From contig PS015020.1 of the NCBI GenBank assembly GCA_048213135.1, forward strand, positions 448,218 through 512,217: 64,000 nt of DNA, read 5' to 3'. This DNA comes from Reclinomonas americana ATCC 50394. Lineage: Eukaryota. A program made the translations under genes and the position numbers. This document shows positions 19,768 to 21,700 of this stretch, in pieces. Each line of letters opens with the position of its first letter. Position 1 is the stretch's first letter. The notes under the pieces are model-generated. The model was not told the origin of the DNA. It worked only from the letters and a program-made list of their open reading frames with translations, and did not search any database.

Positions 19768-21700
19768 CTACTTGGCCTCGTCGCACCAGAAGAGGTCGTA
19801 GAGGCCCTTGAGGTAGCGCACAATCTCTTGCGCGCCCAGCTTGGACTCGCCAAAGAGGCGGTCGACAAAGGTAATCGGCACCTCCTCCACGTGGTACCCG
19901 AGGGCCTTGATGCGCGTAATGAGGCTCATTTGGAAGACGTAGCCCTTGGGAAGCTCGCCGGAGTTGAGCACGTTGGTGATCACGTCGCGGCGGTACAGGC
20001 TGAGACAGAGAGTGTGAGGCGAGCGCGGGAAATGAAGGTGGAAAGGGAGAGCGTGTACCGGAAGGAGCCTGTGAGGTCGGAGACGCCCGGGGCGAGGATG
20101 ACTTGGGCGAGGAAGTTGGCGCCGGTGGAGACGCACTTGCGCCAGAGGTTCCAGCCGTGCACGCCACCGCCTGTCGGAAGATCAGCAACTGAAAATGAGA
20201 GAGCAAGAGACAGCGCGCAACAAACCTTGGGCGTAGCGAGTGCCGGTGACCACCTCGCACTTGGTCTCGCGCTGCTTGCGGATCATGTCGGGGATGTTCT
20301 TCGGCTGTTTTGTGGGGAATGTGAGTTGTCTTTGTTTGATTGTTTGTGAAGGTGTGGACGCAACGTGATGGCTCAAGTCGGCGTCCATGATGATCACGAA
20401 GCGGCCGCGCGCGCTCTTCAGGCCAAACTGGTATGCGCTGCCTGTGTGCGCGAGAGACGAGATGAGAGGGGTGAGAGGGACGAGCGATGAATCTCAACGA
20501 CAGGGGTGTGCGACGCAACCGAGGCCCTGCTTGGATGTGCGCGTCAACAGGATCTGCGGGGGCGATGTGAGCAAAAGAGAAGAGGCAAAGGTGACAAGAG
20601 GCTTTCTCTGAATGAAGGAAGGTGAGGATGCACAGGTGGCAAGAAAAAACTGGTTACGAGAGGCATGCAAGGAAACAAAAGCTGCCGACGAGTCGCAGCT
20701 GCTTTCGTCTCACTCAGAGCGAAGGAAGGAGAAGATGCAAAGGTGGCAAGAGGCTCTCTGAGTGAAGGAGAAGCAATGTCGAGTGGACGTCAACCAGTCA
20801 GCTGCTTTCCTCTTCTTCTGGGCAAACAAGAGGAATAACTGGTGGGGAGACAAGAGAAATAACCGGCTGCTTACTTCTTCAGTCTCTCGTGAGTGAAGGA
20901 AGAAGCAAGGGCGAGCGGGTGCCACCGGGCCCAACCTGCTTTCTCTTTTCTGTCTCACTCCGATTAAAGGGGAAGAAGCAGGGGAGGCAAGAGGAATAAC
21001 CTCTTCTTCTTCTGTCTCGCTTGCTTCAGGGCGAAGAAAGGAGGAGGAGCAGAGGAGACAGGGGGTGACTGCCAGTGAGTTCCACTTGCTTTCTTCCTCG
21101 TGTGAAGGAAAAGAGAAGAGGCAAGGGCGTGTCTCACTAGCTTCCCTCAGTTTCTGTCTCGCTCAGCGAGAGTGAAGGGAGGAGATCAAGGGCGACAAAG
21201 AAGAGACTACCAACGAGCCCATACTCTCCCTGCTCTTGCACTTGTCGCAAATGGCTTGCAGAGTTTCTCATGACACAGTTGTCTCTGCCTCCTTTTCATC
21301 TTCTCCTTCTGCCTCTCTCTCTCTCCACACGCAACAATCTTCTCCTTTCCATAGGCCTTGCACAGCTGTGCGGCCACCTCCTGCGTGCCATCGGGACTGC
21401 CATCATCAATCACAATGATCTCGTATGTCTCCTCTGGCCTGCACACACACACACAAACACACACACAGAGTAAGCACTCTCTCTGCTTCACTCTTCCCTG
21501 CCCTGTGTCTCCCAGACACGCAACAGCTCCTCGTCAAACGAGCGCACAATCAGTGACACGCAAATGGGCAGGTTTTCGCGCTCATTGTATGTGGGGATGA
21601 GGATCGAGTACGAGGGAGCACTGGCGTCTTCTGCAGCAGCTGCTCCAGAGCCAGAAGGCGATGCCTTGCGAGAGGAGGAAGAGGAGGAGGAGGAGGCCAT
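19768..21700 (-). CDS. DPM1: Dolichol-phosphate mannosyltransferase catalytic subunit (GT2)
   Basis: 7 exons giving [72 protein letters not shown] and [17 protein letters not shown]. Confidence 0.95.

Follow-up and report, generated by a model that had tools for sequence, protein, structure and literature searches.

A discrete class of GTT-type 5' splice sites in Reclinomonas americana whose motif appears displaced by one base

Introduction

Recognition of 5' splice sites (donors) by U1 small nuclear RNA (snRNA) in more than one base-pairing register has been described for human introns by Tan et al. (2016, Nucleic Acids Research, NAR, PMC4856993), who list a +1 shifted register in which all pairs between the donor and U1 are moved by one position and who credit this register to Roca and Krainer (2009). 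The validated non-canonical U1 registers in that survey together comprise 3,119 of 201,541 human sites (1.5%). Here we describe a class of donors, most often reading GTTGCGT, in a 64,000-nucleotide stretch of DNA from Reclinomonas americana ATCC 50394 (GenBank assembly GCA_048213135.1, contig PS015020.1, positions 448,218 to 512,217 of the forward strand). This 64-kb stretch, referred to below as the window, is intron-rich, has a G+C content of ~57% and contains two N gaps, and all counts given here come from this one window and from its DNA sequence alone.

The donors of the window resemble the human +1 shifted sites in that the introns are GT-AG, G at +1 stands in for G at -1, U is present at +3, the G/U signal moves from +5/+6 to +6/+7 and the cut is unchanged. 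The human class is marginal in the counts of Tan et al., whereas in the window roughly a quarter of introns belong to the class, including those with the commonest single heptamer. Additionally, the human test sequence as presented there forms contiguous A/U pairs after the mismatch, unlike the donors of the window that have C at +5, which standard U1 is unable to pair. A second human relative in the same paper, the register that bulges a U at +2/+3, shares with the window the GUU start and the displaced +5/+6 signal, and differs in keeping the -1 pair. A further parallel is provided by reports of two major 5' splice-site classes that depend on LUC7, one exon-side and U5-type and the other intron-side and U6-type (PMC11732430, PMC11842720). 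The donors of the window are likewise split, with one half leaning on an exon-side G at -1 and the other on intron-side bases; however, the LUC7-linked classes as described in those reports share one common register, whereas the intron-side class of the window is also displaced by one base. In the collection of article texts that was searched, queries about shifted registers, LUC7 classes or U1 co-evolution turned up no organism that has a donor class of this kind, and full-text searches for GTTGCGT or GUUGCGU, alone or together with splicing terms, returned primers and unrelated uses only.

Results

GTT-type donors fixed by homology in three genes

Exon junctions were placed with a spliced aligner that compares a homologue profile with genomic DNA, allows any GT..AG intron at a flat penalty and makes no use of the donor motif. 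This provided a homology-fixed set of 26 GT-AG introns from the gene for dolichol-phosphate mannosyltransferase subunit 1 (DPM1), a neutral-ceramidase-like gene and a gene of the tubulin-tyrosine-ligase (TTL) family. GTT-type donors were defined by T at +3, a base other than G at +5 and G at +6, and ordinary donors by G at +5; by these definitions the set contains 7 GTT-type donors, 15 donors with G at +5 and 4 with neither. Judged from these profile alignments in three genes, the GTT-type sites are a real class of spliceosomal GT-AG donors, which agrees with what a sequence-only reading of the window had claimed.

The DPM1 coding region is located on the minus strand at 19768 to 21700 and has seven exons (21700-21525, 21438-21336, 20553-20520, 20441-20365, 20304-20226, 20170-20059 and 19999-19768), the spliced model encoding 270 amino acids whose alignment with 13 homologues is gap-free at junctions 2 to 6. 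The profile alignment, knowing only GT..AG, recovers introns 2 to 6 exactly where the sequence-only reading had placed them, and thereby fixes three of the four GTTGCGT donors that this reading had assigned to the gene. These are att/GTTGCGT of intron 2 (21329-21335; intron of 782 nucleotides; the slash here and below marks the cut), tcg/GTTGCGT of intron 3 (20513-20519), which is the sole G-preceded GTT-type donor in the curated set, and cac/GTTGCGT of intron 4 (20358-20364). The last of these lies at the junction SHH/PK, where the sequence and the homologue alignment indicate that a shift of one base in either direction would alter the invariant HHPK residues. The fourth candidate, gct/GTTGCGT of intron 1 (21518-21524), is ambiguous with a GT five bases downstream, as the aligner took 21519/21434 with the acceptor also moved five bases on, giving an intron of equal length in an unconserved stretch. 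Introns 5 and 6 have the donors GTTTGTT at 20225 and GTACACG at 20058, both from the profile alignment. As a separate observation, intron 2 (20554-21335) is ten times the usual length and, when read by eye, holds several imperfect motif copies of ~60-80 nucleotides (…cttcactc…gagacagaa…agcag…).

In the ceramidase-like gene the profile aligner returned 14 introns, one of which (47939) is wrong. Three GTT-type donors on the minus strand are fixed here by profile alignment, each at a site named by the sequence-only reading: aac/GTTGCGT (48911-48917), tgc/GTTGCGT (48358-48364) and cca/GTTGAGC (48113-48119). The second of these is preceded by a 7-nucleotide microexon (48365-48371) that provides the conserved residues AN ahead of DAGD. 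The TTL gene has 8 introns on which 3 or 4 of the 4 reference profiles agree, and one of them is GTT-type, namely cga/GTTGCGT on the plus strand (29701-29707), a listed site that is returned with 3 of 4 profiles and lies in the weakly conserved tail. The nearest database relatives have 65-69% identity for DPM1 and 66% for the ceramidase-like gene; a metagenome scan with the last DPM1 exon found 80 loci with a top identity of 66% and no close relative among them.

The call at 47939 was traced to the GT-only aligner, which had added 9 residues that homologues lack; homologues and sequence together show a GC-AG intron in its place, at 47904-47966 on the minus strand (aag/GCACGT...TTGCGCAG/atc). 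The homology-fixed set also includes four donors without G at +5 or +6, located at 20058, 49363 and 49091 on the minus strand and at 28427 on the plus strand (GTACAC, GTACCT, GTTACT and GTAATG, respectively). All four are preceded by G, which points to the existence of a third group with a weak intron side.

Frequency and properties of the class

The sequence-only reading had listed 33 coordinates of GTT-type donors, and GTT..G(T/C) is present at the right base and strand in 33 of 33. The preceding base is A in 13 of them, T in 12, C in 7 and G in 1, in agreement with the view that most follow A, C or T. Over both strands of the window GTTGCGT occurs 41 times, vs 13.0 expected from a first-order Markov model, and is the most frequent GT heptamer outside simple repeats. 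In a gene parse blind to donor sequence, 13 of the 41 sites coincide exactly with predicted donors where 0.8 are expected from 158 donors among 8,144 GT sites (p = 3.7e-13), and no other heptamer comes close to this enrichment.

Genes throughout the window were modeled with a self-trained exon-chain gene finder that uses two codon classes, a first-order donor model and an acceptor matrix and takes in no outside data. The first-order donor model was required before the gene models recovered GTT-type sites. A version with a single codon class was rejected as it called too few genes, and one with looser penalties was discarded after running to 428 introns. The full model uses GTTGCGT as a donor at 28 of its 41 sites; 8 of the 13 sites left unused are preceded by G, and five of these eight are copies of an exonic GAG/GTTGCGTCGG in a tandem-repeat gene. 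The 187 predicted introns include 43 with GTT-type donors, the repeat gene contributing 15, which is close to the hand count of about 50 in roughly 170 introns, 16 in the repeat gene, given by the sequence-only reading. Three of its listed sites (43695, 24060 and 31174) were unselected by the gene models and look like sound introns when read by eye.

For comparisons between classes we kept introns of 45-300 nucleotides for which both flanking exons score well and are at least 30 nucleotides long, added the homology-fixed introns and collapsed duplicated copies, which left 85 introns. This set contains 49 donors with G at +5, 21 GTT-type donors and 15 others. The GTT-type heptamers are GTTGCGT (12), GTTTCGT (4), GTTGCGC (3), GTTGAGT (1) and GTTGAGC (1). 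The share of the class is consistently near 25% of introns (7/26, 21/85 and 43/187 in the three sets), and GTT-type donors are present in 14 of 15 gene models. Aside from the donor, the introns are alike in length, phase and branch-like motifs. For example, a branch-point-like CT[CGA]A[CT] lies near the 3' end in 15 of 21 GTT-type and 35 of 49 ordinary introns, and the median lengths are 72 and 68 nucleotides, respectively. U12-type donors follow the rigid consensus /[AG]TATCCTT, and TATCC after the first base is found in 0 of the 21 GTT-type donors.

A discrete motif with displaced signal

That the GTT-type donors constitute a class, as opposed to chance combinations of independent positions, was examined with 20,000 independent shuffles of the columns of the 85-intron set. 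These gave 4.4 GTT-type donors on average and never more than 11, vs the 21 observed, while exact GTTGCGT was expected 0.35 times, with a maximum of 4, vs 12 observed. The sequence-only reading had named as one possible refutation a GTTNNGT frequency no higher than independent positions predict, and the shuffles give the opposite outcome.

The preferences of the class are those of ordinary donors moved by one base. Positions +4, +5 and +7 of GTT-type donors are G in 17, C in 19 and T in 17 of 21, whereas ordinary donors have G, C and T at +3, +4 and +6 in 32, 22 and 34 of 49. On the intron side, the fit of GTT-type donors to the ordinary matrix has a log-likelihood of -46.3 when shifted vs -249.3 when unshifted. 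Among donors with G at +6 and a base other than G at +5, +3 is T in 21 and C in 1. The exon side differs as well, since G at -1 is present in 1 of 21 GTT-type donors vs 40 of 49 ordinary donors (Fisher p = 1e-9) and, within the homology-fixed set, in 1 of 7 vs 17 of 19 of the others (p = 7.8e-4). This association does not stem from the donor model of the gene finder, because the invariant G and T break the first-order chain between -1 and +3. The shifted fit, the T at +3 and the loss of G at -1 support the conclusion that the GTT motif behaves as the ordinary donor motif displaced by one base, which bears out the description of it in the sequence-only reading.

Pairing with U1 and alternative explanations

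Duplexes with U1 were predicted from the standard U1 5' end, taken from a table in Tan et al. (2016), with energies that ignore pseudouridine and small nuclear ribonucleoprotein (snRNP) proteins. Ordinary donors have a mean predicted energy of -6.9 kcal/mol, with 40 of 49 in the canonical register. We consider it somewhat more probable than its negation that GTT-type donors are read in a +1-displaced register, and several results weigh against that reading. With standard U1, only 7 of the 21 GTT-type donors have their minimum-energy duplex in the +1 register, the mean energy of the class is -1.9 kcal/mol vs -2.8 for 1,500 random GT sites, and limiting the registers to 0 or +1 gives -1.1 for GTT-type donors vs -1.28 for random sites. 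A shifted duplex both stronger than the canonical one and adequate to mark the site was thus not obtained, a result that applies to the standard U1 5' end only. On the exon side the shifted matrix (log-likelihood -86.4) barely exceeds plain exon background (-88.6), so that this fit excludes a retained -1 pair and does not prove a shift. A pure shift would also predict similar proportions of related motifs, yet GTTGAG is much rarer than GTTGCG (2 vs 15 unique donors) while GTGAGT and GTGCGT are about equal (10 vs 12). Finally, the gene finder that supplied most of the 85 introns had been trained on the window itself, and errors of the gene finder or aligner were detected by homology or by eye at 47939 (the false donor in place of the GC-AG intron described above), 28616 (correct position 28612), 4088 (true donor near 4107, in the scramblase gene upstream of the microexon 4026-4031) and probably 15525 (probably coding sequence, and counted among the 21 GTT-type donors); the gene models also place false micro-exons within long introns.

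The weak pairing with standard U1 is attributable to the near-invariant C at +5, which lies opposite a pseudouridine, and plain shifted pairing to standard U1 is therefore insufficient to explain recognition. One way to supply what is missing is a doubtful but specific form of the displaced reading itself, nested within it, in which U1, one U1 copy or paralogue, or the ACAGAGA box of U6 has co-evolved with the donors, is complementary to GUUGCGU and pairs C at +4/+5, such that G/GUGCGU and H/GUUGCGU (H being any base other than G) would be co-equal registers. We scanned in silico 1,024 U1 5' ends varied at positions 4 to 8 against 84 donors and 400 random GT sites. Canonical U1 ranks 26th of the 1,024, with an area under the curve (AUC) of 0.744. 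G at U1 position 5, the second pseudouridine, helps both classes (AUC 0.821), moving ordinary donors from -6.58 to -7.99 and GTT-type donors from -1.10 to -3.64 kcal/mol; the top single variant (G5, U8; AUC 0.831) puts 19 of 20 GTT-type donors in the +1 register, and canonical U1 together with a second variant reaches 0.867. In both classes C is favored opposite U1 position 5 (22 of 49 ordinary and 19 of 21 GTT-type donors), and Parker et al. (2023) describe a U6 ACAGA box with an altered central base in Cyanidioschyzon merolae. However, this ranking was fitted to the very donors that it explains and is a prediction, not evidence, and GTGAGT donors, which favor standard U1, are as frequent as GTGCGT. 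Additionally, the survey of Parker et al. (2023) describes the U1 pairing sequence as unchanged across 227 Saccharomycotina and 9 outgroup species, and U6 ACAGA as unchanged across 240 species, although donor preference has shifted among them. In the window, Rfam returned no match of any kind at gathering scores, and at E up to 1 no snRNA gene and only spurious microRNA-type matches to a (GA)n/(TC)n palindrome. This palindromic microsatellite, at 53987-54085, has many sub-threshold microRNA-family matches on both strands, which we regard as spurious.

A displaced signal could alternatively arise with U1 in its normal frame (G+1:C8, G-1:C9) and one U of +2/+3 bulged, as in some human sites. The required UU is present in every GTT-type donor, and Tan et al. 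(2016, Table 3) catalogue bulge +2/+3 registers in human, with 68 predicted. Yet G at -1 would still add a G:C pair in such a duplex, and its presence in 1 of 21 donors is below the exon background of 0.29 (binomial p = 0.0097 for 1 of 20). The exon-context log-likelihood for this undisplaced register is -116.5 vs the -86.4 of the shift, and 0 of 21 GTT-type donors folded as a 0/+1 bulge with canonical U1. The loss of G at -1 disfavors a bulge with normal exon-side pairing, and we regard it as improbable. Similarly little weight is given to UUGCGU as the site of a sequence-specific protein or factor, an intronic enhancer beside a weak donor that sets no U1 or U6 register. The high information content of the motif, including a C at +5 that standard U1 is unable to pair, and the absence of exon-side constraint would fit such a site, as would TTGCGC a few bases further into DPM1 intron 5 (GTTTGTTGCGC). 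Against this, the distance from motif to cut is fixed in 20 of 21 donors, and the variants GTTTCGT and GTTGAGT mirror the ordinary GTTCGT and GTGAGT, as a displaced pairing register, but not a protein site, predicts. It is very unlikely that the donors are an annotation artefact, with the true cut elsewhere (for example at the GT of +6/+7 with a compensating acceptor) or with stretches that are unspliced. A second GT..AG pair that keeps the frame does exist five bases downstream in DPM1 intron 1 and in the repeat-gene introns; however, 21335, 20519, 20364, 48917, 48364 and 48119 lie in conserved protein where the profile alignment admits no alternative, with invariant residues at stake at 20364. 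Hardly credible, lastly, is an origin of the heptamer as the terminus of an introner, a mobile element that generates introns, in which case it would be shared by descent and not through recognition. The occurrence of 15 of 43 predicted GTT-type donors in one tandem-repeat gene could suggest as much, but in an all-against-all blastn of 90 introns the GTT-type introns are alike only in the heptamer, apart from repeat-gene copies and microsatellites, and the class is spread over all but one of the 15 gene models.

Paralogues, microexons and repeats

Approximately 17 genes were recognised in the window by homology, Pfam or reading. These include two TerD-domain paralogues, a phospholipid scramblase, two tandem tectonin-like genes, a kelch-repeat gene, DPM1, a syntaxin-like gene, the TTL-family gene, the neutral-ceramidase-like gene, a sucrose-transporter-like gene, a SHAQKYF-type Myb gene and two large genes with repeated 'PSA...LL.EL' motifs, one of which is the tandem-repeat gene. 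A long minus-strand model at 29912-37578 may represent at least two genes, as an ATG at 31214 is followed by a well-formed first intron (31174-31114).

The TerD-domain paralogues are located at 1004-2620 on the plus strand and 17023-19469 on the minus strand and have at least one intron position in common, after ...ADL[IV]P[VM]MQ. At the same protein position the donors belong to different classes, CAA/GTTTCGT in the first gene (1396-1402, from the gene model) and CAG/GTGTGGT in the second (18494, minus strand), a switch that agrees with a displaced signal. The first gene has a further donor, gac/GTTGCGT (1610-1616), located by a gap in the Pfam TerD profile, which stops at profile position 42 where the exon before this donor ends and picks up again at 83 in the second exon after it, the gap being filled by an exon of 39 amino acids. 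The tectonin-like genes, an identity supported by a protein atlas search, are tandem duplicates on the plus strand (7780-9270 and 9947-11509) with the same exon structure, each having cat/GTTGAGT before a large last exon (8585-8591 in the first, from the gene model, and 10799-10805 in its paralogue).

In the scramblase gene, on the minus strand, two GTT-type donors follow microexons. The donor aca/GTTGCGC (5084-5090) comes after a 7-nucleotide microexon (5091-5097) and was placed by the gene model and by-eye reading, with Pfam Scramblase matching the flanking exon; aca/GTTCCGT (4019-4025) comes after a 6-nucleotide microexon (4026-4031) and was placed by eye (...FTDADNFVISFP). The 5090 junction was read with NKYxIxN, which we take to be a scramblase family motif, and 4025 was read likewise with what is presumably a family motif. 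A homologue search for the scramblase gene gave no match. Together with the one in the ceramidase-like gene, there are three minus-strand microexons (48365-48371, 5091-5097 and 4026-4031; 7, 7 and 6 nucleotides), each followed by a GTT-type donor and each needed for conserved residues (AN before DAGD, YN in NKYNIYN and AD in TDADNF, respectively).

The tandem-repeat part of the large repeat gene spans 39200 to 43100 on the plus strand in units of ~715 nucleotides with three introns each. Two of the three introns per unit have GTTGCGT donors, in the contexts gg(t/a)/ and ttt/; these donors are at 39462, 39891, 40167, 40591, 40868, 41307, 41583, 42022, 42299, 42739 and 43018. Copies of these introns measure 67, 67, 75, 75, 78 and 70 nucleotides, and because the differences (8, 3 and 11) are not all multiples of three, the intervals must be noncoding. 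As the codon ahead of the donor is GGT in some copies and GGA in others, the only GT common to all copies is that of GTTGCGT, and codon variation beside a constant GTTGCGT agrees with a displaced signal. The same gene holds five in-frame exonic copies of GAG/GTTGCGTC(G/A)G (39742, 40447, 41156, 41871 and 42590), all of which follow G and are apparently unused as donors.

Discussion

In the mechanism that we favor, H/GUUGCGU, a second discrete donor class, would be equivalent to the ordinary G/GUGCGU read one base deeper into the intron. In such an arrangement G at +1 would replace the usual G at -1, U at +3 would replace U at +2, and GCGU, which ordinary donors have at +3 to +6, would be read at +4 to +7. 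Binding of the donor by its snRNA or snRNP, with U1 acting first and probably U6 later, would most likely take place in the +1-displaced register, with cleavage kept at the only available GU. As C at +5 is near-invariant and canonical U1 is predicted to pair poorly, we infer that recognition is aided by some lineage-specific component; an altered nucleotide in U1 or U6 could play this part, as could a protein, for example U1-C or LUC7. The proposal of altered donor recognition put forward in the sequence-only reading is plausible in this light.

What is known of cut-site fidelity under out-of-register U1 comes solely from a small number of atypical human sites and from reporter constructs. A displaced register in about one quarter of introns would provide a natural system in which to learn which snRNA sets the register, how the hand-over from U1 to U6 tolerates an extra base, and whether snRNA sequences that are supposedly invariant co-evolve with donors. 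Genomes that have this donor class will be mis-annotated by gene finders that use a single donor matrix. Should the possible change in snRNA sequence be true, it would constitute the first example of a U1 pairing sequence that has changed in co-evolution with donors and the first of routine dual-register splicing. If RNA data and snRNA genes agree, the class would clearly interest specialists in splicing.

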